A program made the translations under genes and the position numbers. A stretch of DNA of 32,000 nt from Ureaplasma parvum serovar 3 str. ATCC 27815. Lineage in GTDB: Bacteria > Bacillota_I > Bacilli_A > Mycoplasmatales > Mycoplasmoidaceae. The stretch spans positions 600,001 to 632,000 of the forward strand of contig NC_010503.1 in the NCBI RefSeq assembly GCF_000019345.1. Direction: 5' to 3'. Positions 1 through 24,221 of this stretch are shown here, piece by piece (position 1 is the stretch's first letter; every line of letters starts with the position of its first letter). Under the pieces are notes generated by a model. That model searched no databases and had not been told where the DNA came from. It was given only the letters and a program-made list of their open reading frames with translations.

Positions 1-3000
1 ACCAATAATTGAATTTGAAGCGTTTTTATCAAAACTAAACACATAATCATGTGTATTTGTGCTAACTAATAATGGTTGAGTTTCAAAGGTTTCGTTATTA
101 TTTTGTGATTGATAAACTAATTTTAGTTTTTTAGCATTTAAATATGGATCAATTTTATTAAATTTAGCGTTAACTTTAATTTCTTCTTTATTTGATGCGT
201 AAGTATTTTTTATAGTTTTAATACTATTAATTTCAAAAATAGGTGTACTTGTTGTAAAAATAATTGAATGTGTTTGATCATTTGAATAAAACTGATCATT
301 ATATTTGTTATTAATATGTTTATAAGCATTATTTGGTTGTTGTTTAAATTCAACACTAACTAATATATATTTAGTATTTGGTTCTAAATTATTTAACGTA
401 AAGCTAAGTTTTGTTTGGTTATTTACATTCGCAACAACACCATTAGCTACAAAAGTCTTAGTTAAATCATCACCTTTAGCAAAATGACCTATAATTTGTG
501 AATTTGGTTTAAAAATATCACCATCATTTGTACTTATAGAACAATTAATATCAGCTGATGTTGAAGTAATATTTTTAACTTCATGTGAACTAATTGTTGT
601 TGCTGATGGATTTATAACTATTTTTTTATTTGTAATTGATGAATTAATTGGAATTTGATTTGTGTTTGTGCATGCAAAATCATTATTTTGGTCTGAGAAA
701 TAAATAGCTTGGATTTCATAAGCCTTATTAGCAATTAATTTGTCATGACCAATCTCCACACTAGCTTTATTATTAGTAATTTTAAAAGCACTACTAAATT
801 GGTCATCTTGTTTAAACTTATGACCACTTACACTATATTTAACACGAATGTACTTATTGTTTAATAAATTAGAACTTAATTCAATCGGTCAACTAATCTT
901 GGTGTTTTGATCATAATCAAGATCTTGTTTATTAATTGTAACTTTATTAACTTCACAATCTAAAGCAATTTTTTGATTTATATCTTGATTATTAGTACTT
1001 AAAAGAGCTAAAGGATGTTGGGTATCATTAATTTTAGCAAATGCGGCATGAATTGGTTTATTAGCAAAACTAATTTCAAAAATACCATAATCTTGATTTA
1101 AAGTTAAATTATCAATATCAAATTCACAATAGAATTGTTTATTTTGTTGATCATATTTAATTGTAATATTGTTAATTAAATTAGCATTTTGCGTTTGATT
1201 AAATAAAGCATATTTAACATTTAATAATTCTTTTGAGCAATCAGTTGAATTTAAAATACCATCAGGATCATTAATTATATATTTAACATGTGCACTAACA
1301 GATTGATTATCTTGAACTTTTGTAATTGTAATTGTTGGTTTTTGCACATCCATTTTATTTGGCGCTAACCCTAAAGCTAATGATAGATGATTTTCATTTA
1401 AATCTTTTTTAATTTCATTGTTTGCACCCTTGTTTTTAATTGCACAAATTTCACTCAACTCATATTGATGATTAGGTGTAATTTGTGATTTTAACAATTC
1501 AAATTCATAAACTTGATTTGAATTTGAATTAATGTTATTAGAGCTTTTAATTTCAATAGCTGGTTTGTTAGGATTTGTTTTATCTACAAATTTAGCATAA
1601 ATTTCATATCCTTCAAGTTCATGGCCTTCTTTATGTAAACCAACACTAAATTTAACATTTTCGTCTTTTGCACATTCATAAACTCCATTTACTAATTTAG
1701 AGTTTGATGCTAATTTAAAATCTTTAATGAAATTATGAGCAACCTTAGTTGTTAAATCTAGTTTTTCTAATTGTTTTTTAGTAGTTTCATTATATTGAAT
1801 TGGTGATGTTTTTACATTAGGTGAATGAACATGTGTTGTGCTAATAGCACCAATTTCATAAGTTGTATTTGGTGTTAAATCCTTTAATGTAACATTAATT
1901 TTATGATTTTTAACACTAACTTCACCAGCTTTTGAACTTGTTCAAGCTTGTTCACCTTTTTTGCGATATGTAATTGTAATTTGGTCATTATCAACTAAAT
2001 TATGATCTTGATCATCATAATCGAATGATAGATGGATTTCATCATACGTATTTGATCCACTTTGAATAACATTATTAACACTAATAGGTGTAGGTTCGAT
2101 ACTAAATTTAGCATCATCTTTATTAAAATTAGGTGTTAAATCAAGTGTATTAGCGTTTTTAAAATCAGCAGTATCACTAATGATTAACTTAACAAATTCA
2201 AAATCACGATTAGCAACTAAGCTAGTTTGATTATTATTAAAACTAAATTCTTTATTAAATGGTTTTGTAGTTGTATCTGAATTCAACAATACAGGATCTG
2301 ATTCAATTTGTTGGTTATTATTATCTTTATAAACTAATTTCGCATATTTGTTTTCTAAACTAGAACCTGTTTTATTAAAACCAACCATTAACTTAATTGA
2401 TTCATTCTTGTTAAAGTTTGTTTTTGTTGGTTTAACACTATTTAAAGTTGATTTTTCTAAAGTTTTTAAATCAATATTAGTATTATGATTATTAATTGGA
2501 TAAACTATATTGTCCTTATTAACGCCATTATAGATAGTATCACTTGGTTTGCTTGTGAACCAAACTTTTTTCACTCGATATTTAGTATTAGGTTTTAAAT
2601 TAATCAGTTGGGTTTTTAATAATCATTCATTATTTTCTTTTTCTAATGTTAAATCATAATCATGCGTTGTTGAATTAATTATTTGATCATGTGCATCAAG
2701 TTCATCAATACTGATTTTAGCGATTTTTAGATGGTTATTCTTATCTTCAAAAATTTGGTCATTTGAATGTAACAATAAACTTAAAGTGATTTTATTTTCA
2801 TCTGCATTTTGTGCTTTTAAATCAACATACGTACTTGATGGTTTAGTGCTTATTGTTTGTGGGTTTACATTATTTTTAATAACTACCATATTTGCATGAT
2901 TTTCATCAACATTAACATCTTTTGAATAGTATAAAGCAGCAAAAGTGTATAAACGATTTGAAATAAGTTGGTTTTGGTTTAATTCAAAATTTAAAGCAAT

Positions 3001-6000
3001 ATTATTTTTATTATTACCTATATTAGTTGGCGCAGGGATTGTATTAGTTCAAACGACACGATTATCATTACTAATATATTTTGCTTTAAAATGATATCCT
3101 TGAATTGTTTCAACTCGTGAATCTAAATTAATACTAATATTTTGTTTATTTGCTACATCAACATCAGTTAAGTTATTACTAAAACTTGCAATAGCAAATT
3201 TATTTGTAAATACGTATGTTTGTGTTGTATTAACACTAGCATCATAAACAACATTGTTTGGTTCTTTATAATCATTTTTAAAATTAATTTTATAAACACC
3301 ATTACCAACATCTTGGTTTTCATCAAAGTAGATTTTATAAACTTTATATTCTTTGTTAACTTTAATGTTATTAAGATTAGCAACAAAGAATTTTTGCCCA
3401 TCAATAATTTCTACTTTACCTTCATGTTCGCTAATCTCATTTAAATTAGCACCATTATTTTCATTTGGTTGAATATTAAACTTAAAGGTTTGATTTTCTT
3501 TTAAAACATCATCAAAATCATTGATAGCAAATTTTAGTTGTACTTTTGCACCATTATCACTAATTTCTTTAATTGGTGCACCAATAATCCCTAATGGTTT
3601 AGTTGGTAATAATTTAAAAGTTTTATTAAGATTTTCATATATTCATAGATCAATATAATCACTTTCACTAACGTTGCTTTGATTAAAATCTTTATTTTTA
3701 AGATAAACGACACGCTCTAAAGTGTATTCGCGATTACGTAATAAATCTTTAAATTCTCATTCATAATTTGCGTCATTTGCTGATGTAACTTTATGAATAA
3801 ATGAAATTTGCTTACCATCATTTTTACGTTTGAAAATAAATTTGATATCTTTATTAAATAAAGAAGCGCCAATGTTTTCGATTCGTAAATTTATTTTTAA
3901 ATCTGCTGTGTTTTTATTTTCATGATAAACAGGATCCATACTTAGACTTGTTATTTTAAAAACAGGGGCAAGAGTATAAAAACCAATTGGTCCTGATGGT
4001 AGTTCAAAAATGATAGGAGAAACATTCTTGGTTTTTTGATTCTTAATTGTAACACTCACAATTTCATAATCAAGACCAGCAATTAAATTAGTTGCCATAC
4101 ATTTTGTATATCTTTTATCTTGATCACTAATTGTAGCTGGGGTTGAAATAATATTTTGTGTTCCTTTAATACGATAATTGATATTAATTTCATCACCGCT
4201 ATGTAGTTGATTATCACTATCATCTAAAATTAATTTAATCAAGGCCTGGTTTTGTCATACATCAATAGCGTTTTTGCTAACTTTAATTTTTGCTGGCGTA
4301 GTACTAAAGCTTGAATTAACTAAAGAGGGATTTAAAGCTAAAATATTTTTTTGTTCATTAATAGCATCAAAATTTTGTTCATCACCATAAACAACTTTTA
4401 ATAAACGATAAAGGTGATTTGGTTTTAAATTACTAAAACTAAAATTTTGTAAACTAATTAAATTAGTTTGGTCTAATTTATTAACTAAAAGATCGTTTGT
4501 ACTTATTAGTTGGTGTTCATTGTCCTCAAATACTACTTTAACATATTTATTATTAAGCTTATTATTGTTCTTAATAATATTAATATTGAATTTAACATCA
4601 TATATGCCATTATTATTTTTTGGATAAGCATCTGCTAAATTACTAATTTCATTAACAATTGATTTTGATAATGTATGAATAGTTTTTTGATTATCTTCAA
4701 TATTGTTTAAAAGAATTTCATTATTATTGTTGTTATTAATATTAACATTAGCTAATTGTGGTTTTTGTTTTAAACTAACACTTGTTAAACGATAAGTATG
4801 ATCTGCTAATAAATTAGTAATTACCCCTGAAGCACTAAAACTATGTTCATCTTTTTTAACTAATGTTGTTTGTGTTTTTAAAACTGGTTGGTTTTTATCT
4901 ACTAAATTTTCAAAACATAATTCAACAAGCATTCCAGGTTCTAAAACTTGATCATCATTATTAATGTTAAAATCATAATTAAATTGATCTTCATCAACAT
5001 TGTGTGTTTTAAATTCTAATAGTTGGGTAGTTGAAGCTAAAGTACTAAAATCATAAGTTTTTGAATGCTCTTTTACAAAAATCTTCTTACCTTGGGTTTC
5101 ATCATTATTTTGATTTTGATCATTAAAATAATAAATTCCTGCAAAATTGTATTTACGATTAGGTGTTAAATGATTGAAATTTAAATTAATATGTGCTAAA
5201 TCAACATTATTTACACTAGCATAATCACTTCAAATTTTTTGGTGGTTATTATCAATATATAAAGCTCGTAAATATTGGTCTTTTAATAAGTTTTGACTAG
5301 ATTTTAATTCAACATCAATGCTTGCAGTAGGATTTAAATTTGTATTAGGTTGATTAACATTAATGTTGTTAACAAATAATTCGTTTGTAAAACTTAGAAT
5401 TTTACTTGGATTTGAACTAGCATCATAAATACTATTTTTATTAGAATTATTACTAATAGCATTGGCAGGTTGAATTTTATTTTTTGTTGCATAATTAATA
5501 TTATCAACAATGTATTTATGATTTGGTTGAATTTTAAATGTGTTAGTGTTTTCTACACTAAATTCAAGTGTTTTATTATTATTAGCGTCAACATTGATTT
5601 TACCAATAACATTATGAGTTGTTTTATCTTTTTCATCATGGAATGTAATTTCTAAAATACTATCTTGTTCTAAAAAATCATTAGGATCATTTATTTGAAG
5701 TTTTAAATTAATTTTATTTAAATTTGAATCTGGTTTGCGAACTAGTTTAGTATCTATTGTTAATTGCTCGTTAACTGATGCTGTTTTAAAAGTGTTTGTA
5801 ATTTTTTGATTATTTAAAAAACTAAATTTATAATCATTTTGATTAGGTTCAGTATAAATCAGTTTTTTAAATGAATAAATACGATTATGTTTTAAATCAT
5901 CTAAATTAAAATCATATTCATTAACACCATAATTTAAAACAACAAAGTTATTAGATACTAAATCATGTTCCCCATCGTTATACACAATTTTAGCTTTACA

Positions 6001-9000
6001 ATTATTTAAACTTGTTCCATCATTATTAATAACAATATGAACACTATTAGTTTTTACATTCGCATCTACTACATCACTTGCAGTAACACTAACTAAATCA
6101 AAACTTGCTTTTGGAGTACTAAAACCTGGTGTTTTTTGTGAATCAATTAATACATGATTATCATCACTATTATTAACATTAAAAGCACCTAATACTGGTT
6201 TTTGTCTAAATTTAACAGATTTGATCTGATAATTAACTTCTGGGCTTAAATTATTTGCATGAATTTTAACGCCTCACGTTTTTGTTATATCATCATATTC
6301 TAAATTAGATGTAAACATTAAATCATTTTTCGTATTATCTTTATTGCCAATAGTAACATCAATAACTTGATCTTTTGCAAAAATATCATCGGTTGACACT
6401 AATGGTAAATATAAATCCGCACTAGCAGGAGTGATGTTATTAATAGTTACTTTTGGTGAATTAAGATTGATTTTTGAAGCTGTTTGAATTTGTAAAGGTG
6501 TTATATTGTTCATATTAACCTTATTAGCTGATGTTATCTTAACAGTATTAACATCTTTGAAATAATATAACCCATCAAATTTATAAATACGGTTTGATTT
6601 TAATGCATTTTTGTCTGGTAAATTAAATTCATATTCATTATTAACATTATTAATTGAAACAGGATCAGATCAAACAACATCACCATTATTATCAATATAC
6701 TTTAGTTTTAAATAGTATTCATTCATTAAATTCAATGAACGTTTAAGGGTTAATTTAACTTTATAATTTAAAACATTTGTTTTTACATCTGTTATATTTG
6801 GCTCATAATTATAAGTATTAACTAATAATTCATTACCAAATTCACTCAATTGTGGTTGAGAATTATTTAACTCATAAACTTGTTCATGATTTTCATTTTG
6901 ATTAAAAGCAGCGTTGATTGGTTTATTAATCAACGTGATATTGTTAATATGATATTTATGGTTTAATGAAACATTAGGAACATCAAACTCTAAATTACGA
7001 TTCCCGTTTTGATCAATCACTATTTTTTGATTATCTGCATCAAAAAGATTATTAGGATCATCTAAATCACTAATTTTAATAGTAAATGAACTACCATCAC
7101 TGTCAACTAAGACATGATCATTATCAACTAATGGAATTGATAATCTAATACTATCATCAGTACGTTTAATTACTTGTAAACTATTATTTTTTAAACTAAT
7201 AATTCCTGTTGGTTCTGTTTTAAAACCATGACTTAAATCAGTGCTATTTTTTATCACCGCATCAGTGCTTTGTAAATCATTTTGATCTTGTGCATATATT
7301 AATTTAACAAATTTATAAACACGATTTGATAAAAAACCATTTGGTTTATTATTTGTTAATGTGAATTTATAGTTACTATTGCCAACATTTAATAATAAAG
7401 GTTGAGATAAACAAACTTCATTATCTTTACTAATATAAACTAATTGGGCTCAAACGTTATTTAATGTTTTATCTTTTTGTGAGAAAACAATTTTTACATT
7501 AACATCAAGTTTATTTTCATCTTTTTTAATTACTTCATTTGAACTAATTGATTCAATATATGTTCCAATTAATTTCGTACTAAATTGATTATGTTTTTGA
7601 TCAAAAGGGGCAAATACAACTTTTTGATACGCATCATTTGCTAAACCTAAGGCCTTTAATTCTAACAATTCATAATTATTATTAGATACTAAATTATTAA
7701 GTTCAAATTCTAACGTACCACTTTTGTTGGTTTTGTTAATTCCTTTAACATACCCTATTGTTTTATAAACTTGTTGATTATTCTTATTTAAATAAGTTAA
7801 TTCAACTGGGTTACCAATTCTTAATTTTTGATCTTGATCTACAAAATCAATTGCTATTCGTGCATCTTGTGATTTAATAATTTGTTTAGGATTGTTAACA
7901 TCAAAATTAACTATAGTAGCATGTGGAGTTGTACCAAAAATTAATGGAGTTTTAATTGGAGTTGAATAATGAATTTTATTGTTGTTTTCATCATTAAAAC
8001 CCAACAATAAATATTTACTATTGCCTTTTAAATTTTGCAAATGTGCTACATAATTTTTTTTCACTAAATCATAATTTAGGTTAGCAACTAAATCTGGTTC
8101 TAATGCGTTATTATTTTCATCTAATAAACGATAAGTAATTGTTTTGGGGTGCTTATTAGTTGTACTAATATTTAAATTTAATTTAGTTGCATTAGGATCA
8201 GTATCATATTGATGATAATCCTCTAATACCAATGTATTAGTAGAAAAAATTCTAAATGTATAACCAATAACTTGATCTTTAATAATATTGATTTTAGTTT
8301 GACTATGAGCTTCAGCGTTTAAATCAGTAAGATTTAAATTATTATTTTTAAAAACTAAATTTTTAATGTAATAAGCAGTATCTGTTTGTAAATGATTAAA
8401 ATCAAAAACTAAACTATTATTTTTATAATCAATTAAGCCATAAGCACTAACACAATGTTTTGGATCGTTTTTTAAAGCAAGTGTTAATTTTAATCGTTCA
8501 TTTAAAGCTAATTTATTAGGGTCATTAACTGTTAAAATTAAAGTTGTGGGTTTGTTTTGAATAACACTAGGATTTTTAACAATAATTTTACGGCCCAGAT
8601 CAACTTCATTATTTAATGTTTTAACTGAATTATCAACATCATCTGAACTAATAATTGTTTCTTTAGGAATGTGATATTCATCTTCTATGCTAATTGAATC
8701 AAAATGATAAATCTTATCTTTTGTAAAATTAGGGTTGTTTGATAGATCAATTTGTAGTTGGTGTTTATTATTAACAATTGCAGGAATTTTTATCAAATTA
8801 CCATCAACATCTTGGTAATTAACAAAAACGTCTTCGCCTTCTTCAACATTTTTTGGCACATCAAAAACTAATTGGTTATTAACAATTTTACCAATATTTA
8901 GTTTGTTAACAATAATTTGTTTTTGATCCAAATCAGCAACATTAATTACTTTTTGACCATCATATTTAAGAGCAATTAGTTGATATTTATGATGGTTAGG

Positions 9001-11358
9001 TAAAACCTCATCACTAGTTATAAATCGTGTTTGACCTAATGAATCAATAATAGTTTTTGCTTTAACATGATATTCTTTTTGATTTTCATCAATAAAAGTT
9101 GCATCTAATGAACGATTAAACAAATTCTTATCAAAAGTTAGTAGGTTTAAATTTTTATTTGCATCTTGTTTAATAATTGCAAGTGGTTTAATAATGCTAA
9201 TTCTGTTTAAAGGATTAATTTCGTTTGAATTTAATAAAATTTGCTCATGCTTGTTTTTATCAACAATATTTAACAATTGATAGTGGTGGTTTGCATCTAA
9301 ATCTTTTGTGTTAATACTTATTTTATTCTTATTTAAATCAACTTTAGTAGGAACAAAATAATCTTTATTATTTTCATCAATAAAATGAGCAACAGCATCT
9401 TGAGTTGTTATTTTATTTAAATTATCATTAATGTCAATAATTAAATTTCCTAAATCATCATAGGTGTATGTATTTAATTGTTGTAATTTATTTACATCGA
9501 CTTTTTCTAATAATCTATCTTTTCTATCTAAATCATTAACATTAACGATTGGTTGATTATTAACATTAGTAATTTTAGTCAATGTATAAGTGTGATTATT
9601 AGGTAGTAAATGATCATCATTTGTTCTTAAAATTAATTCTTGTTGATCATTTAATTTACCAGTTAATTGATAAGGATGATGATTTTCATCTTCAAAAGTT
9701 AAGACAACAGACTTATTAGCTAAATCAGGGTTTAAAAGTTGAATTTTATAATTATTATCTTCTAATGCCCCAACAATCGCAGCTGGTTTACTAAACTTTG
9801 TTTTTTGATTAATTGCAAGTTCATAATCATTTAAAACATTTGTTTCTGGCTCTTCTAAACTAATAACATGTTTTAGTTTATATGTATGATTTAAGTTTAA
9901 ATCAGAAGTGTTAATTACAATATTGCCATTTAGATCAACCTTTGTCAACACTTTATGTTCATTATTTTTTTCATCAATAAACACGGCTTCAACTTGATCA
10001 TTAGCGAATTGTTTAGAATCTACTTTAGCATTAAAAATTAAATTCCCTTTATCATCATAATGATATGGATCATTTAATGCATTAGTGTTTAATTTATTAA
10101 TAGTTTTAGCACTTTCATTTAAATCATCTAAGTTAGCAACGCGTTTTGCTGGAGAGGTATTATTAATGCTAATATTATCTAGTTTATATAAGTGTCCATC
10201 TTTTAAATTGTTTAAATCTACAGTAATTTCACCATTATTAACCTTAGCAATAATATTGGTTTTATCGTGGTTTTCGTTTTCAAAACTAAGTGTTAATAAT
10301 CGATCATTTAAACTTGAATCAACTTGAATATGAAGTGCTTTTTGTAAACCATTTTTATCAGTTTCAATTTTTATTTTATTTGGTTTATGGACAATATTTT
10401 GATGTGCCGCATCTAATTTATTAGGTTTTATAACATCATGATTATCCTTATCAACAATTTGAATTAGTTTATAATCATGGTGATTTTCTAAATCTTTTGT
10501 TAATAAACGCACAAGACCATCAGTACCAACTATTGCCTTTAAAGTGTGTAATTGGTGTTTTTCATCTTCAAATAAGGCATTAATATTTTGATTAGCTAAA
10601 TTTTGTGAAACACGTGCGTTAATAATAACGTTTCCTTGATCATCAAAACTGCGTGTTTTATCAATACCACGAATGGGTTCACTAATTTCATCTAAATTAA
10701 CAATTTTTGTGTTTTTATTATCTTCTTTTAAAGTTAAACCTACGAATTTATAAAAATTTCCTAAAGGTAGTTGTTTAGTTCCAACAATTACATTACCATT
10801 ATGATCAACCTGAATATTTTGAATATATTTAGCATTATTTTGATTAATAAAATGCGCAGTCAAATACTGATTACTCAATTCATGGTTTAATTTAATTTCA
10901 AAAAATTTATCGCCTTCTTTATTAAAATTAACTTTAAAGACATTAGGACGATCGACAAGTATTTTTTGTTGCCATACCAACTCATTATTATTGATTAATG
11001 TATTATTATTTTCATCAACAATACGATCTAAAACTCAAGAATTATTCAAACCTAAACTCGTTGTGTCAATTCGTGCTACTTCTTTATTTCTTGTAATTAA
11101 AACTGAAGTTTCCTTGCCTAATTTATCTTTAAAAATCGCATAAATCTTTTGGTTAATATCATTATCTCTTGTAAATAAACGAACCTTAATAATTAAATTA
11201 CCATCTTTTGTATATTCATAGTATTTACTAAAAATTTGATTGGAATGCTGATTTGCGAAACGTAATACAATTCCTGTAATTACACCAGCTCAAATTAAAG
11301 AACTAATTGTAAGTCCAGTAGCTATTTTGGCATTACGTTTTTTATTTTTATTATTCAT
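1..11358 (-). CDS. Giant membrane-anchored modular surface protein. The 5' end is complete and the 3' end lies beyond the window (at least 3,786 codons).
   Basis: Nine minus-strand track ORFs (889-1497, 1942-2574, 2623-2889, 3757-4242, 4255-4932, 5230-5985, 6274-6513, 6670-7257, 7450-10980) share one frame (upper coordinate divisible by 3). I hand-translated the gaps 1-888, 1498-1941, 2890-3756, 7258-7449 and 10981-11358 and found only TGA, never TAA or TAG. The ATG is at 11358. The N-terminus MNNKNKKRNAKIATGLTISSLIWAGVITGIVL has a basic stretch followed by a hydrophobic anchor. The body carries a recurring L-x-(P/S)-N-(H/R)-x-Y-x-(L/F) motif. Confidence 0.8.
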
Positions 11359-11402
11359 AAATAATCATCTCTTTTTTATAAAATTTTCCTGTTTTTCAGT
11401 CT

Positions 11403-11420
11403 AAAAAAAAAAAAAAAAAA
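11403..11420. repeat. A18 homopolymer (T18 on the sense strand of the giant gene) in the divergent intergenic region.
   Basis: Counted directly: 8 A at 11403-11410 plus 10 A at 11411-11420, flanked by ct and c. It lies 45 nt upstream of the ATG at 11358 and 166 nt upstream of the ATG at 11586. Confidence 0.95.
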
Positions 11421-11455
11421 CTAATTTATTTTGTGTAAACTGTTAAACTACACAA

Positions 11456-11464
11456 ATTATACCA
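11456..11464 (-). promoter_or_regulatory. Candidate extended -10 box (TGGTATAAT) for the giant gene.
   Basis: The reverse complement of attatacca at 11456-11464 reads TGGTATAAT. If this box is used, the T18 tract falls in the 5' leader. This is motif-only evidence. Confidence 0.35.
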
Positions 11465-11585
11465 TTTATCCGCTTGCTCTCTTGTTACAAAATACACAAA
11501 TAATGTAAGTTTTTACTATATTGAAAATATCTTTGGTTATAATTTAATTTGATAATAAATTTAAATTTTATGATAGGTTAAAAAT

Positions 11586-12719
11586 ATGAAAAAAAACACA
11601 CATAAGAAACTTTTGCCTTTAATTTCTATTTTTGTTTTAATCCCTTTGAGTTCACTTGTTGTAATGTGTTCAAAAACTAAAACAAAAATAGTAAAAGAAC
11701 AAAAGCAAATTACTGCTTCATCGTTAAGATCTACTGATATTGATTTAACATCAATTAACCTTGAAATCTATTTTGCTAAATTTGATGTTAATGATATTTT
11801 AGTTAAAAAATTCAGCATTGAATTAGAAGATGATAAGGGAAATAAGATAAATGTTGATATAAATCCCGAATATAACAAAAATTTACAAATGCTAAGTTTT
11901 AAATTAGAAAACTTAAAACCAAACACTACATATAAAATTACAAAGTTTAATATCACAGGACATGAGGTTGATCTAACTCAAATAAAAGATTCATTATTCA
12001 CTACTAAAGCTGAGAATCTTTTACCTGATATCCCTAATTTACCTAATAGTGTTGGTATTGAAATTAAAGATATTAAAACTAATTCACTTAGCAATGATGC
12101 AACAAAAGTGAATGTTAATGTCAATTTAGAAATTAACCAATCAACATTAGAAAATCAATATGCCCGATTAGTTTATAAAAGCAATGATAATTCTTGAAAG
12201 CTATCAAATACTTTAAAAATTGCTGAAATTAAAAATAGTAATTTTGTTTTAGATGGTTTAATATCAAACCGTAAATATCTTTTTAAAGAATTAATTATTG
12301 GAAGCCAAAGTGATTTAAATTTAACTAATGCGCAAACTAAAATAACTACTAATAATGAGCTAAGTTTCACTACAGCTCCAAAACCTGTTGAAATAAAAAG
12401 TGTTTTAATTGATACAAAATTTGATAATCATCCAAGTAGTTTAATTAATTTGAAGTTTAATGATAGTGAGAATAATTTAAAAGAAAATGATATTTTAAAA
12501 ATTAAATATAAAAAAGTAGGACCAAATGAAGTCATCTTTGAAAAAACAGTTCGATTAGCTAATAATTTTGAACTATTATTTGAAATTGAAAATACAAAAA
12601 AGAATGAAAAATATGAAATCTTAAGTTTAGAATCAAACACTAAACATGGATATAATGTTGCACCAAGTATATTTAATTTTATTTCTAATGATTTACGCAC
12701 TTTTGAAATCAAAGGTTAA
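11586..12719 (+). CDS. Putative lipoprotein (377 aa) carrying the same module and motif as the giant protein.
   Basis: Track ORFs 11586-12197 and 12450-12719 are in the same frame. I translated the intervening stretch and it is open except for TGA at 12195. The signal peptide MKKNTHKKLLPLISIFVLIPLSSLVVMC has Cys at residue 28, a relaxed lipobox. Motifs seen: LKPNTTYKITKF, SNRKYLFKELII, NEKYEILSLE. The stop TAA is at 12717-12719. Confidence 0.8.
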
Positions 12720-12745
12720 TTTGAATAAAAATCTAGTTACTCATT

Positions 12746-12783
12746 AAAAAAACGGCACGGCGCCGTTTTTTTTTTTTTTTTTT
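12746..12783. terminator. Bidirectional rho-independent terminator between the convergent lipoprotein gene and rpsD.
   Basis: The structure is A7, CGGC stem, acggc loop, GCCG stem, T18. The GC stem can extend through A:T pairs. It sits between the stops at 12719 (+) and 12818 (-). Confidence 0.8.
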
Positions 12784-12817
12784 GATTGGTTAATTGCTTA
12801 TCTTGTAATATAAGTAA

Positions 12818-15430: not shown

Positions 15431-15506
15431 TGGTGGTTTCGGACAGAATCGAACTGTCGACACACGGATCTTCAGTCCGTTGCTCTACCGACTGAGCTAC
15501 GAAACC
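15431..15506 (-). tRNA. tRNA-Phe (GAA).
   Basis: The reverse complement GGTTTCGTAGCTCAGTCGGTAGAGCAACGGACTGAAGATCCGT...CCGAAACCACCA has anticodon loop CTGAAGA and an encoded CCA. Confidence 0.92.
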
Positions 15507-15507
15507 A

Positions 15508-15583
15508 TGGCGGTCCTGACGGGAGTCAAACCCGCGATCTCCTCTGTGACAGAGAGGCATGTTAATCACTACACCACAGAACC
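15508..15583 (-). tRNA. tRNA-Asp (GTC).
   Basis: The reverse complement GGTTCTGTGGTGTAGTGATTAACATGCCTCTCTGTCACAGAGG...GGACCGCCA has anticodon loop CTGTCAC. Confidence 0.92.
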
Positions 15584-15585
15584 AT

Positions 15586-15662
15586 TGGTTGCGGGAGAGG
15601 GATTTGAACCCCCGACCTCCAGATTATGAGCCTGACGAGCTACCAAGCTGCTCTATCCCGCG
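15586..15662 (-). tRNA. tRNA-Met (CAT), initiator type (fMet).
   Basis: The reverse complement CGCGGGATAGAGCAGCTTGGTAGCTCGTCAGGCTCATAATCTGGAGGTCGGGGGTTCAAATCCCTCTCCCGCAACCA is near-identical in layout to E. coli tRNA-fMet. It has the C1-A72 mismatched end. Confidence 0.88.
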
Positions 15663-15719
15663 ATAATAACTTTATAATGTTGTGTGTAAACATTGATAAA
15701 GTATTTTATATTTATATAA

Positions 15720-15812
15720 TGGCGGAGAAAGAGGGATTCGAACCCCCGCGCGACTTGCATCGCCTCTCAGTTTTCAAGACTGATCCCTTCAGCCGGACTT
15801 GGGTATTTCTCC
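15720..15812 (-). tRNA. tRNA-Ser (TGA), class II with a long variable arm.
   Basis: The reverse complement GGAGAAATACCCAAGTCCGGCTGAAGGGATCAGTCTTGAAAACTGAGAGGCGATGCAAGTCGCGCGGGGGTTCGAATCCC...GCCA has anticodon loop CTTGAAA. Confidence 0.9.
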
Positions 15813-15880
15813 ACAGTATATACTAAACTACAACCTTTTTATTATAACATAGTTTAGTACATTAATTTTATATATTTTAT

Positions 15881-15958
15881 TGGTGCTTCTAACAGGACTT
15901 GAACCTGTAACCAACCGATTATGAGTCGGGGGCTCTAACCAAATTGAGCTATAGAAGC
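15881..15958 (-). tRNA. tRNA with CAT anticodon, most likely tRNA-Ile2 (lysidine-modified CAU).
   Basis: The reverse complement GCTTCTATAGCTCAATTTGGTTAGAGCCCCCGACTCATAATCGG...TAGAAGCACCA has loop CTCATAA and a GGTTAGAGC D-arm, which is Ile-like. Its position matches the Met-Ile-Ser-fMet-Asp-Phe order known from M. capricolum and B. subtilis clusters. The Ile versus Met identity is inferred. Confidence 0.8.
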
Positions 15959-15960
15959 AA

Positions 15961-16037
15961 TGGTGGCTGGACAGAGATTTGAACTCTGAACCTCCCGGGT
16001 ATGAACCGAGCGCTCTAACCAGTTGAGCTATCCAGCC
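15961..16037 (-). tRNA. tRNA-Met (CAT), elongator.
   Basis: The reverse complement GGCTGGATAGCTCAACTGGTTAGAGCGCTCGGTTCATACCCGGGAGGTTCAGAGTTCAAATCTCTGTCCAGCCACCA has loop TTCATAC, as in Bacillus elongator Met. Confidence 0.88.
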
Positions 16038-16041
16038 AAAA

Positions 16042-16118
16042 TGGTCGGGAAGACAGGATTCGAACCTGCGACCCCTTGGTCCCAAACCAAGTGCACTACC
16101 AAGCTGTGCTACTTCCCG
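16042..16118 (-). tRNA. tRNA-Pro (TGG).
   Basis: The reverse complement CGGGAAGTAGCACAGCTTGGTAGTGCACTTGGTTTGGGACCAAGGGGTCGCAGGTTCGAATCCTGTCTTCCCGACCA has loop TTTGGGA. Confidence 0.92.
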
Positions 16119-16165
16119 AACGATTAAGATAATATTTCATAATACTATCTTTTTAAAAAATTTAA

Positions 16166-16242
16166 TGGCGCACCCTAAAGGAGTCGAACCCTTAACCTTC
16201 TGGTCCGTAGCCAGACGCTCTGTCCAATTGAGCTAAGGATGC
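16166..16242 (-). tRNA. tRNA-Arg (ACG).
   Basis: The reverse complement GCATCCTTAGCTCAATTGGACAGAGCGTCTGGCTACGGACCAGAAGG...GGGTGCGCCA has loop CTACGGA. Confidence 0.92.
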
Positions 16243-16245
16243 ATA

Positions 16246-16320
16246 TGGAGGTGCCAGTCAGATTCGAACTGACGAATAAGGAGGTTGCAGCTCCTGACCT
16301 TACCACTTGGCTATGGCACC
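16246..16320 (-). tRNA. tRNA-Cys (GCA).
   Basis: The reverse complement GGTGCCATAGCCAAGTGGTAAGGTCAGGAGCTGCAACCTCCTTATTCGTCAGTTCGAATCTGACTGGCACCTCCA has loop CTGCAAC. Confidence 0.92.
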
Positions 16321-21338: not shown

Positions 21339-21415
21339 TGGCGCACCCAAAGAGACTCGAACTCCTAACCCTATGCTTCGAAGGCATATATTCTAACCAA
21401 TTGAACTATGGGTGC
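21339..21415 (-). tRNA. tRNA-Arg (TCG).
   Basis: The reverse complement GCACCCATAGTTCAATTGGTTAGAATATATGCCTTCGAAGCATAGGGTTAGGAGTTCGAGTCTCTTTGGGTGCGCCA has stem TATGC/GCATA and loop CTTCGAA. Confidence 0.85.
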
Positions 21416-21448
21416 ATTATTTTATATATTTTATATTATTTTAATAAC

Positions 21449-21481
21449 AAAAAAAAAAAAATCTGCAACCATGCAGATTTT
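21449..21481 (-). terminator. Intrinsic terminator between the two tRNA-Arg genes.
   Basis: The plus strand reads A13-ATCTGCA-acca-TGCAGAT-TTTT. On the minus (tRNA) strand the 7-bp hairpin is followed by T13. Confidence 0.7.
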
Positions 21482-21491
21482 AGTGTATCAA

Positions 21492-21568
21492 TGGCGCACC
21501 TGAAGGGATTCGAACCCCAGACCGTACGCTTAGAAGGCGTATGCTCTATCCAACTGAGCTACAGGTGC
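21492..21568 (-). tRNA. tRNA-Arg (TCT).
   Basis: The reverse complement GCACCTGTAGCTCAGTTGGATAGAGCATACGCCTTCTAAGCGTACGGTCTGGGGTTCGAATCCCTTCAGGTGCGCCA has loop CTTCTAA. A TATAAT box (complement of 21580-21585) lies just upstream. Confidence 0.9.
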
Positions 21569-21665: not shown

Positions 21666-21869
21666 ATGAACACAGAAAAAATAATACAAATTTTTTTATA
21701 TAAAACAAAATTATTCCGTATTCAATATTTATTTTTAGATGTTTGAGATGAAAAACAATACTTAAAAACTGAGGTAATTAAAGATTTGCAATTTATTAAT
21801 AAATGAAACATTAATAAAATTAAAAACTTACATTCTAATGAAAAAGAAGGTGATAAAAATGATCAATAA
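21666..21869 (+). CDS. Small hypothetical protein (67 aa).
   Basis: The ATG at 21666 is preceded by GGAGG (21652-21656). Two in-frame TGA codons hid it from the ORF track. Sequence: MNTEKIIQIFLYKTKLFRIQYLFLDVWDEKQYLKTEVIKDLQFINKWNINKIKNLHSNEKEGDKNDQ. The stop TAA is at 21867-21869. Confidence 0.55.
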
Positions 21870-23001
21870 TTCACCAAACATTAATTATTATTTACAAGAT
21901 AAAAAATATATTCCAAAATATGCTTACTATGTTAATAAAAAACAAAAACCTATCGAGCTATTTGCACGATATAAAGGACGTCCTGCTCTTTTTATTCGTG
22001 AAAATACCATGATTAATACTTCATTAAATTCAAATGTATTAAATTTAGACTTTGAATTTGAAGTTGCAGGAGATTTTAAATTACCTATTAATTACTTTTT
22101 TATGGATATAAAAAGTGATATAGGTGAATTTCGTAATTTAGAAGTTTATGAAACTAAACACTCTTTGTATGAAATCGGAGGAGTGATTTATGACTTATAC
22201 ACTTATAAAACCAATTTAAAAATTAATCTTAATCAAGCTGGTTTTGTTAATAAGAACACTTTAAGTAAAAAAATTAATTTTGCTTTTTTTCTTCGTATTA
22301 ATGATGATAAACGAATTCATGAACAAATTAATTATACATGTGAAAAAAGTTTGTTTTTTGAGGCAGTACAAAAAGAATTTCAAGATCTTAATTTTGATTA
22401 TTTTTACAAAAATACATTTTTATTAAATAAACACGAAAAAGTTAATCCTACTAATTTTTGAGAAACAATTCCATTATTTTGAATTCAAGATAAAGAACTT
22501 GATAATGAAATAAAAATCAAAAATAATAAGCGTTATATATTTAATACAAAATTTAGTTTAAATGATGATAATTCATGAAATAATCGTCCTACGAAAGAAA
22601 CGTTTGAATTGATTAAATACTCCTTAGAATACGTAAATTTAGCTAAAGAAAATAAAAAAATTGAATGAATTGAAGATTATCAAAATATTAATATTACATA
22701 TGATTATTACCAAAGACCTATTGATTTTTTATTAAAAATGAAAACAAAATTCTTGTATGATTTTAAAAACGATCAATTATCTATTAATAATAATTATGGT
22801 TTTAATGGTATTTGATTACCAAATAAACAAATAGCAAAATTAAAAATTACAGTTATTAATAATTATCTAACACCACAAAAATTTGTAATTAATCAATTAA
22901 TTAACATCGAAAATGATTTTAATTCTATCAATAAACAAAAAATTAGTGTACAGAAAGCAATAATTGAAAATTATGAAAATTTTAAATCACTTGAAAATTA
23001 A
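21859..23001 (+). CDS. Hypothetical soluble protein (~380 aa) with no recognisable motif.
   Basis: Track ORF 21838-22461 continues in frame through TGA codons to TAA at 22999-23001. The ATG at 21859 has a GAAGGTGA Shine-Dalgarno sequence and overlaps the upstream stop. The ATG at 21838 is an alternative start. Confidence 0.7.
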
Positions 23002-23833
23002 TTGGCGTAGTCATAAAATAAAGGTGATTGTTGGTGGAATTATTAGTTTATTAATTGTAATTACTGCTATTATTTTAGGTGTTATTCTATCAACTCAAAA
23101 TACAAATAAAATTAGTAAAAAAGAACCCTTAACTCAAATTGAAGATAATATTAATAATAAAAAACAAGATGCACATAAGGTTAATGAAAATATAACAATT
23201 ATTGATAAAAAAGGTGGTATAATCCATAAAAAGACAGACATTACAAAAATTAACCAAATAAATCAACAAAAAGAAATTTTAAAGGATTATTTAAAAAATA
23301 AAGAAGAAAAAAATAAGGATCAAATAAATAATACTAACGAAAATCTAAATAAACCAATAATTAATGTTAAAAATGTAGATGATAAAAACAAACAAGAAAA
23401 TTCAACTAAATTAAAAAATAATGATTTTATTTCTAATAATGATAAAAACAATAAAATCAACGAAAATAATAATATAAGTTATGAAGAAAAACCTTTTAAA
23501 CTAAAACGCTTCAATATTATTAATGTAATTGCGAAAAATAAAGATTTATACCAATTATTAGATTTCAAAACTTATTTTTCTAATGAAAACATTAATAATG
23601 ATATTAAATTTAATGAAAAGTTGTTTATTAAAAATATCTATGAAATAGTCAAATCTGCTATAAGTAGTTTTCAAGAATTTTGTAATATCATGCAGTATAT
23701 TAAAATTGATATCAAATATAAATTTAATAAAGATGCAAAAAACATAATTGTTATTGCTAATTGATTATTCGATAATTATAATATTAAAAATGAAACAAGA
23801 TATTATGAAGAGTTTGTTTTAAGTATTAATTAA
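22973..23833 (+). CDS. Hypothetical single-pass membrane protein (~286 aa) with a K/N-rich linker.
   Basis: Track ORF 22964-23764 is extended through TGA to TAA at 23831-23833. The start is ATG 22973 (or TTG 22964). The TM segment is KVIVGGIISLLIVITAIILGVIL. The 5' end overlaps the preceding gene by 29 nt. Confidence 0.7.
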
Positions 23834-24146: not shown

Positions 24147-24221
24147 AGGGGTATAGTTCAATGGTAGAACTGCGGACTTCAAATCCGCGTGTTGTGGGTT
24201 CGAGTCCTGCTACCCCTGCCA
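24147..24221 (+). tRNA. tRNA-Trp (TCA), which decodes UGA and UGG.
   Basis: AGGGGTATAGTTCAATGGTAGAACTGCGGACTTCAAATCCGCGTGTTGTGGGTTCGAGTCCTGCTACCCCTGCCA has stem GCGGA/TCCGC and loop CTTCAAA. The overall sequence resembles Bacillus tRNA-Trp. Confidence 0.92.

Follow-up and report, generated by a model that had tools for sequence, protein, structure and literature searches.

The DNA analyzed here, referred to as the window, is a stretch of 32,000 nucleotides from the genome of strain ATCC 27815 of Ureaplasma parvum serovar 3 (contig NC_010503.1, positions 600,001 to 632,000). Its G+C content is 24.4%. The window is dominated by one end of a giant gene of the DUF1410 family. The gene is located on the minus strand, and positions 1..11358 hold a partial coding sequence (CDS) that corresponds to codons 1-3786 of the 5,803-codon gene. 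The 2,017 remaining codons lie beyond window position 1. The partial CDS was recognized from its one continuous frame, its identity to the annotated protein UPA3_0513, a match to the Pfam family DUF1410, and the ratio of nonsynonymous to synonymous substitution rates (dN/dS). It takes up 11,358 of the 32,000 bases (35.5%), and a preliminary description of the same DNA had likewise put its share at more than one third of the window.

The Giant Gene Is a Single Open Reading Frame

Translation of the reverse complement from the ATG at 11358 down to position 1 gave 3,786 codons with 13 in-frame TGA codons and not a single TAA or TAG. The upper coordinates of the TGA codons are 11292, 11037, 7452, 6672, 6276, 5232, 4257, 3759, 3645, 3051, 2625, 1944, and 891, and these codons cut the frame into 14 segments. 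The base composition of the strand predicts that 7.7% of codons should be TAA or TAG, and these codons make up 7.7% and 15.6% of its two remaining frames. The chance of finding 3,786 codons without TAA or TAG is ~1e-131. Under translation table 4, a single open reading frame (ORF) spans 1..11400, and its first ATG is at 11358.

The preliminary description proposed that nine minus-strand ORFs fuse into one gene under code 4. The ORFs do share one frame, but their number depends on the length threshold, and seven ORFs of at least 100 amino acids (aa) are found under table 11. Five gaps had been left untranslated in that description (2575-2622, 4243-4254, 4933-5229, 5986-6273, and 6514-6669), and full retranslation shows no TAA or TAG in any of them. 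Across its 3,786 residues, the window segment shows 100% identity to a 5,803-aa GenBank protein of U. parvum serovar 3 ATCC 27815 (UPA3_0513, ACA32944.1, WP_012316995.1), and a 98%-identical strain carries the gene as a single CDS of 5,785 aa. A length of at least 3,786 codons with a frame still open at position 1 had been claimed, and the annotated full length is 5,803 codons. Thus, the observation of one giant gene was confirmed.

The start codon is located at 11356..11358 on the minus strand. An in-frame stop is present 14 codons upstream, and full-length U. parvum orthologues begin with the same MNNKNKKRN sequence. Furthermore, UPA3_0513 has the same start and the same neighboring genes as the gene in the window. 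The gene is already known and is annotated as a single CDS for a 'DUF1410 domain-containing protein'. In other words, the finding is correct, and as a discovery it is ordinary.

In-Frame TGA Codons Are Read as Tryptophan

The reading of the giant gene as one frame depends on UGA being a sense codon. Each of the 13 window genes checked contains in-frame TGA (1 to 13 per gene), and all 13 end in TAA or TAG. In each of two orthologues, tryptophan stands opposite 12 of the giant gene's 13 TGA codons. At the DNA level, TGA and TGG are exchanged between the window and the Ureaplasma urealyticum orthologue at residues 23, 129, and 2933. A transfer RNA (tRNA) of 75 nt with the anticodon UCA is encoded at 24147..24221 on the plus strand (Rfam RF00005, 66.5 bits). 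ARAGORN reports the anticodon as tca and labels the gene SeC. In Mollicutes, tRNA-Trp(UCA) decodes UGA, and despite its label the tRNA is read here as a tRNA-Trp that decodes UGA, which places evidence for code 4 within the window itself. Because in-frame TGA occurs in all 13 genes, TGA and TGG are exchanged between species, and a tRNA with a UCA anticodon is present, TGA is tryptophan in the genes of the window, as in translation table 4.

Relatives of the Giant Protein

The full giant gene is 17.4 kb long, which amounts to ~2.3% of the 751,679-bp genome, and its product has a mass of 664 kDa. Together with a 5,759-aa paralogue, its share of the genome rises to ~4.6%. A search of 5.8 billion proteins identified the 5,785-aa protein (98% identity), which cluster names assign to U. 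parvum, a 5,796-aa protein (73% identity), which they assign to U. urealyticum, and three other giants of 5,759-6,490 aa (24-28% identity). Paralogues in this size range occur in both species. DUF1410 is present in all the giants matched in this search. A second giant paralogue is present in U. parvum (the P0004 cluster). Some of the U. urealyticum orthologues (5,769-5,804 aa) are labelled 'fibronectin repeat protein'. An older database entry, AAF30907.1 from ATCC 700970 (5,005 aa), is named a 'unique hypothetical membrane lipoprotein' and begins at about residue 799 of the full protein. The full-length N-terminus does not bear out its designation as a lipoprotein.

Is a gene of this size maintained by selection? 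A Nei-Gojobori comparison of the window segment with the U. urealyticum orthologue (locus L001) gave a synonymous rate (dS) of 0.62, a nonsynonymous rate (dN) of 0.16, and a dN/dS of 0.25. The whole array is under purifying selection because dN/dS lies between 0.16 and 0.37 in every 500-codon stretch. This finding bears on a view in which the gene is decaying and functionless, or is a set of independent shorter products. Several deposited genomes contain interrupted copies, as that view would predict. However, an intact ORF of ~17.4 kb exists in many strains of two species, a candidate promoter and a neighboring gene are conserved, and neither the low dN/dS in every stretch nor the improbably long open frame would be expected of a decaying gene. 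Decay or fragmentation into independent products is accordingly held to be very unlikely.

The distribution of the repeated module of the protein was probed with a profile of 32 window modules against 1.84 billion cluster representatives. At E<=0.001, the profile matched only 107 proteins, of which 46 reached E<=1e-10 and 18 reached E<=1e-30. Giants of 3,200-7,969 aa are numerous among them, and the profile matches as many as 57 stretches in one protein. Ten matches were looked up, and the bacterial ones with names belong to Mycoplasmopsis canis, Mesomycoplasma dispar, and Mycoplasma species, all of which are Mollicutes. Other matches of the profile are tenascin-X (E=3.8e-12) and a protein from lamprey. 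On these counts, the module is a rare variant similar to the fibronectin type III (FN3) domain, and the bacterial members with names that were looked up are all from Mollicutes.

The giants of M. canis, M. dispar, and Mycoplasma sp. 480/613B have 3,253-3,911 aa and contain the same module tens of times. Across the DUF1410 giants, the number of modules ranges from ~20 to 57, and identity to the protein described here falls from 73% in the U. urealyticum orthologue to 24-28% in the paralogues. The N-terminal anchor motif of the giant protein recurs in the Ureaplasma paralogues, and the C-terminal ends of these paralogues differ from one another. The top match of the module profile is a 7,969-aa protein with 57 modules (P0049) on a Logan contig of 23,969 bp, and it exceeds any named member of the family in length.

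Relatives were also sought in a contig collection that evidently lacks U. parvum and U. urealyticum. In this collection, a 1,176-aa ORF had no confirmed relative, and an RNase J-like protein matched only uncultured Ureaplasma metagenome-assembled genomes, at 39-40% identity. The literature on DUF1410 was found to consist of passing mentions in two papers, with nothing on its function or on the giant gene, including in searches by locus tag.

Modular Architecture of the Giant Protein

DUF1410 (PF07198) is found in 15 stretches of the protein with a score of 281.7 bits against a gathering cut-off of 25.5 (E=1.7e-85). The stretches form a long array of the kind that marks this family in Ureaplasma and other Mollicutes proteins. 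An iterated hidden Markov model (HMM) built for this analysis resolved more units, namely 33 modules in the window and 42 in the full-length protein. Gaps of double length leave room for ~6 more, which would bring the number of modules to ~48. According to this HMM, modules 1-9 (aa 39-921; 8596..11244, minus strand) are short, with 93-111 aa each. Modules 10-33 (aa 922-3786; 1..8595, minus strand) are longer, with 112-134 aa each, and the last one is cut by the window edge.

The modules are only 13-27% identical to one another. Pairs at even offsets share 19-20% identity, whereas pairs at odd offsets share 13-15%. Even-offset pairs are therefore more alike, and the later modules (10-33) alternate as a two-module super-repeat. 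The repeats escape simpler methods. A BLASTP comparison of the protein with itself shows no internal repeats because the modules are too divergent, so that iterated HMMs were needed. No tandem repeats are present in the DNA of the giant gene, and TRF (Tandem Repeats Finder) reports only two trivial 2-copy arrays in 1-12800. The alignment of 32 modules displays one near-invariant residue, a tyrosine in the motif L-x-x-N-x-x-Y-x-h-x-x-h.

RTX (GGxGxD), LPxTG, HExxH, and RGD motifs are all missing from the full-length protein. Within its last 2,085 aa, no Pfam domain scored above threshold and no RTX match was obtained, and no NCBIfam model matched the first 2,109 aa. The preliminary description had seen no enzymatic motif, and neither Pfam nor NCBIfam scans, including the Pfam scan of the C-terminal 2,085 aa, reveal an enzymatic domain. 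A serine-protease-like GDSGG motif at residue 5508 was considered and dismissed, as orthologues have G, R, or S in place of its Asp and no peptidase domain was detected.

Predicted Fold of the Modules

The structure of modules 3-5 (aa 228-518; 9805..10677, minus strand) was modelled with AlphaFold2. The input alignment had 27 rows, which were corresponding stretches of three modules in the orthologue and paralogues, and it was built on fixed module windows because a three-module HMM drifted out of register. The model was compared with known structures by Foldseek. The model has a mean predicted local distance difference test (pLDDT) of 82.3 and a predicted template-modelling score (pTM) of 0.71. 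It consists of three all-beta domains with seven or eight strands each, and no coiled-coil content was seen in it. Foldseek returned 48 matches in the PDB at E<=0.001, among which FN3 tandems were dominant. The top match was 6xi3, a 'tetra-tandem repeat in extending region of large adhesion protein' (E=2.8e-8, 12% identity). The next matches were the FN3 tandems of EpoR and IL-4R, fibronectin FN3 10-12 (6xay), contactin FN3 1-3, and the C region of Bap. The TM-scores were low (~0.2) because the angles between domains differ.

Are the modules FN3 domains? At the level of sequence, membership in the FN3 family was not supported. Pfam fn3 (PF00041) stays below its gathering score (14.9 vs 25 bits, E=0.032), as does FN3_DSCAM (19.2 vs 39). 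The 32-module profile found nothing at E<=0.01 among PDB sequences. An hhalign comparison with human 10Fn3 was not significant (E=0.079), and it placed the tyrosine motif on the LKPGVDYTITV segment. At the level of fold and motif, the modules are FN3-like according to the model. The L-x-x-N-x-x-Y motif resembles the tyrosine-corner motif of FN3, with L-x-P/x-N-x-x-Y in the giant protein in place of the eukaryotic L-x-P-x-T-x-Y. The seven-strand sandwich predicted for the giant protein is shared with eukaryotic FN3 arrays such as 6xay, tenascin-X, and cytokine receptors.

The domains of the model are joined by short linkers of 10-25 residues with lower confidence (pLDDT 50-72). Such linkers could be accessible to proteases, and they raise the question of whether the product of this one gene is a precursor from which several surface fragments are released by cleavage after translation. 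Endoproteolytic processing is well documented for the large adhesin families of Mycoplasma hyopneumoniae and for other big surface proteins of Mollicutes. However, no cleavage motif was identified in the giant protein, and processing is considered quite unlikely. It would concern only maturation and would be compatible with a surface fibre.

Probable Membrane Anchoring of the N-Terminus

The preliminary description gave the protein a basic segment and a hydrophobic anchor, and a basic and a hydrophobic segment are both found at the N-terminus. The protein begins with MNNKNKKRNAK, which is followed by IATGLTISSLIWAGVITGIVL. Six of the first 13 residues are lysine or arginine (aa 1-13; 11320-11358, minus strand). 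The only hydrophobic segment of the protein comes next (aa 14-32; 11263..11319, minus strand). Its Kyte-Doolittle score over 19 residues peaks at 1.78 (aa 14), and no other segment of the 5,803-aa protein exceeds 1.24. The WAGVITGIVL motif is conserved even in paralogues that are only 28% identical overall. Because this motif is retained in divergent paralogues, the sequence suggests that the hydrophobic segment is kept as an anchor and not removed. By the positive-inside rule, the protein would adopt the N-in/C-out topology of a signal anchor.

A lipid anchor and a sortase anchor do not fit. The protein is not a lipoprotein, as its first cysteine is residue 969, and the lack of a lipobox had been noted in the preliminary description. 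A sortase anchor would call for an LPxTG motif, which is missing, and no second hydrophobic segment above the Kyte-Doolittle value of 1.24 is present.

Giant proteins of Mollicutes are often structural, and examples include the structural and motility proteins Gli349 and Gli521 of M. mobile and HMW2 of M. pneumoniae. The giant protein of Ureaplasma could by the same token be an intracellular or cytoskeletal scaffold, and its acidic to neutral character (isoelectric point 6.4) would agree with this. However, the all-beta FN3-like fold and the basic N-terminus followed by a transmembrane segment point to the outside of the cell, and no coiled coils appear in the model. Furthermore, Ureaplasma is not known to glide. 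A role inside the cell is highly improbable. Both the internal scaffold and the decaying gene are poorly supported because of the fold, the topology signal, and the dN/dS.

Mosaic Ancestry of the Giant Gene

The two ends of the giant gene differ in how far they have diverged between species. The proteins of ATCC 27815 and U. urealyticum are 62-86% identical as far as residue 4,200, and the figure is 86-99% beyond residue 4,400. A comparison of a related U. parvum locus (L002) with the U. urealyticum locus L001 shows the same change in dS, which is 0.4-0.8 before and 0.03-0.06 after about residue 4,300 (~nt 14,400 of L002, outside the window). At the nucleotide level, the two species are 75.6% identical in the adjacent lipoprotein gene, 65.5% in the intergenic region, and 73-86% in the 5′ 13 kb of the giant gene. 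The identity rises to 94-99% in the 3′ 4.4 kb of the giant gene and is 98% in dnaG and glyS. For comparison, the two species have been reported to differ by an average of 9.5% across their genomes. The part that varies most among U. parvum strains is residues 4,800-5,600 (79-96% identity), where ATCC 27815 resembles U. urealyticum more than it does some strains of its own species.

Since dS shifts 15-fold within one gene, the two parts of the giant gene are of different ancestry. These sequence comparisons point to recombination between the species with an ancestry breakpoint near residue 4,300. Either side of the breakpoint may be the imported one. Extensive gene exchange among ureaplasmas has been reported in published work.

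A Proposed Model of the Giant Protein at the Cell Surface

What does the giant protein do? The evidence is best accommodated by a membrane-anchored surface fibre of FN3-like modules, a reading that is considered probable, and the likeliest job of such a fibre is contact with the host through adhesion or spacing. The short basic N-terminus would remain in the cytoplasm, and a single transmembrane helix (aa 14-32) would hold the protein in the cell membrane in a type-II-like manner. The ~48 divergent DUF1410 modules would be located outside the cell, and each would fold as a seven-strand FN3/Ig-like (immunoglobulin-like) beta-sandwich. An FN3 domain is 3.5-4 nm long, so that ~48 modules arranged end to end would produce a fibre of ~150-200 nm. 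At its far end, there would be a non-repeat C-terminus of ~200 residues. By analogy with giant adhesins that have Ig-like extenders, the repeat array would serve as an extender, and the distal part would be an interacting end held off the membrane. The topology, the surface exposure, the fibre shape, and the adhesive or shielding role are what we infer from these features. The preliminary description had suggested an adhesin, a surface shield, or a host-interaction fibre, and the predicted tandem FN3/Ig-like beta-sandwich fold supports that interpretation.

The design resembles that of known giant adhesins. LapA/RTX-type giant adhesins (6xi3) and Bap (7dm0) likewise contain very long arrays of beta-sandwiches that project a distal region, and SiiE of Salmonella is a giant non-fimbrial adhesin with a tandem Ig-like extender. 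The giant protein shares the tandem Ig-like extender with the RTX/LapA type, but this is a resemblance in design and not homology (12% identity to 6xi3). Unlike the RTX/LapA type, the giant protein has neither GGxGxD repeats nor LPxTG and would be anchored by an N-terminal transmembrane helix. Moreover, the way in which LapA/RTX adhesins are secreted (type I) and retained cannot apply to Mollicutes, which lack an outer membrane. Another point of comparison is MBA, which is also a repeat-containing protein and is the characterized major surface antigen of Ureaplasma (PMC3511179). MBA is a lipoprotein with short, near-identical repeat units, and its size and phase vary by slipped-strand events and site-specific recombination (PMC3511179). 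In contrast, the giant protein has no lipobox and no tandem repeats at the DNA level, and its modules are highly divergent.

Several observations weigh against a host-contact fibre. A search of the literature found no data on expression, surface localization, or binding of the giant protein. FN3-like arrays are also found in proteins that are not adhesins. The distal region, which would form the interacting end, gave little to go by. Only one 229-aa fragment matched the last 329 aa (the non-repeat C-terminal region), a comparison of the distal C-terminal region with PDB sequences gave nothing meaningful, no relatives were detected outside the orthologue group, and AlphaFold with a 3-row alignment reached a pLDDT of 30.7 for this region. 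In addition, the gene is interrupted in some strains. In serovar 1 ATCC 27813, it stops after residue 2,096, where the window reads GAG. WP_318023354 has a frameshift at a T5 run near residue 2,873, and in ATCC 700970 the gene is annotated only from ~aa 799. Five cluster members from other strains that are split or truncated versions (P0012, P0013, P0014, P0017, and P0019) map to residues ~799, 2096/2143, 2873, and 3534. The interrupted copies are either real null alleles or sequencing errors. Unless these records hold sequencing errors, their occurrence in several deposited strains means that cells can do without the giant protein, at least in culture.

The same surface array could instead serve mainly as a passive coat or decoy. 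In such a case, the wall-less membrane would be shielded from antibodies, complement, or phage by a long brush of diverse antigenicity, and the protein would have no specific host ligand. This would explain why a very large protein has no recognizable binding or enzymatic domain and why the first ~4,200 aa diverge between species well beyond the genome-wide difference. The several alleles of the distal third within U. parvum would be expected of an antigen exposed to the immune system, and a second giant paralogue in the same species would fit as well. However, selection over the array is purifying and not diversifying, the modules are old and stable without repeats in the DNA, unlike those of the size-variable MBA, and the best structural match is the extender of an adhesin. 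A coat or decoy without a ligand is thus regarded as unlikely.

A surface fibre with a role in host contact would have a particular significance in ureaplasmas. U. parvum and U. urealyticum are common urogenital and neonatal pathogens of humans, and a comparative-genome paper stated that the adhesins of ureaplasmas are unidentified (PMC3511179). The giant gene is a candidate of moderate interest for the missing adhesin. A more far-reaching proposal can be put forward only tentatively. The DUF1410 giants may be the sought cytadhesins of human ureaplasmas. In this proposal, an N-anchored, FN3-like stalk of ~48 domains would present a distal region that is swapped between U. parvum and U. urealyticum by recombination. 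Host-binding or antigenic specificity would thereby cross between the species, and a T-tract upstream of the gene would perhaps tune expression. Whatever its role, the family gains a concrete description that consists of an N-terminal anchor, ~48 FN3-like modules, a distinct distal end, and a mosaic history between two human species.

Upstream Region and Neighboring Genes

A candidate extended -10 element, TGGTATAAT, can be read from the sequence at 11456..11464 on the minus strand, ~100 nt upstream of the ATG, and its TATAAT is kept in U. urealyticum. A promoter scan for two hexamers did not list this element. Immediately downstream of it, a palindrome, TGTGTA-N11-TACACA, is located at 11432..11454. 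The palindrome is unique in the window (0.01 expected by chance) and is conserved in the U. urealyticum locus. A homopolymer of 18 T (T18) lies between the candidate promoter and the ATG (11403..11420, minus strand). It is T17 in the U. parvum locus L002 and absent in the U. urealyticum locus L001. Two pattern scans of metagenomes gave no further alleles, so that two alleles of the T-tract are known, 18 and 17 T. The 5′ leader does not fold better than shuffled sequences (z=0.38). The leader elements could act as an operator or as a slipped-strand expression switch, although the T-tract is known in just two lengths.

The gene divergent to the giant gene encodes a lipoprotein of 377 aa (11586..12719, plus strand). 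Its signal peptide ends in VVMC, which is similar to a lipobox, and it matches Pfam DUF1410 (E=1.3e-7). The lipoprotein gene adjoins the giant gene in both the U. urealyticum and the U. parvum locus, and its product carries DUF1410/FN3-like modules. The lipoprotein may be a partner of the giant protein or a small member of its family. The lipoprotein gene converges with an rpsD-like gene, and a second T18 homopolymer is found between the ends of the two, at 12766-12783 on the plus strand. On the other side, the giant gene is followed in L002 by dnaG, glyS, recO, era, and ybeY.

Other Features of the Window

The other tRNA genes of the window are ordinary for a Mollicutes genome. Nine of them (Phe, Asp, Met, Ser, Met, Met, Pro, Arg, and Cys) are located at 15431-16320 on the minus strand, and a pair of tRNA-Arg genes is located at 21339-21568 on the same strand. 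A run of 13 A (A13) at 21449-21461 separates the two tRNA-Arg genes. Further along, a membrane-anchored protein of 286 aa is encoded at 22973-23833 on the plus strand and matches Pfam DUF5452 (E=6e-59). The start of this gene overlaps the preceding gene, which encodes an uncharacterized protein of 387 aa (21838-23001, plus strand), by ~29 nt.

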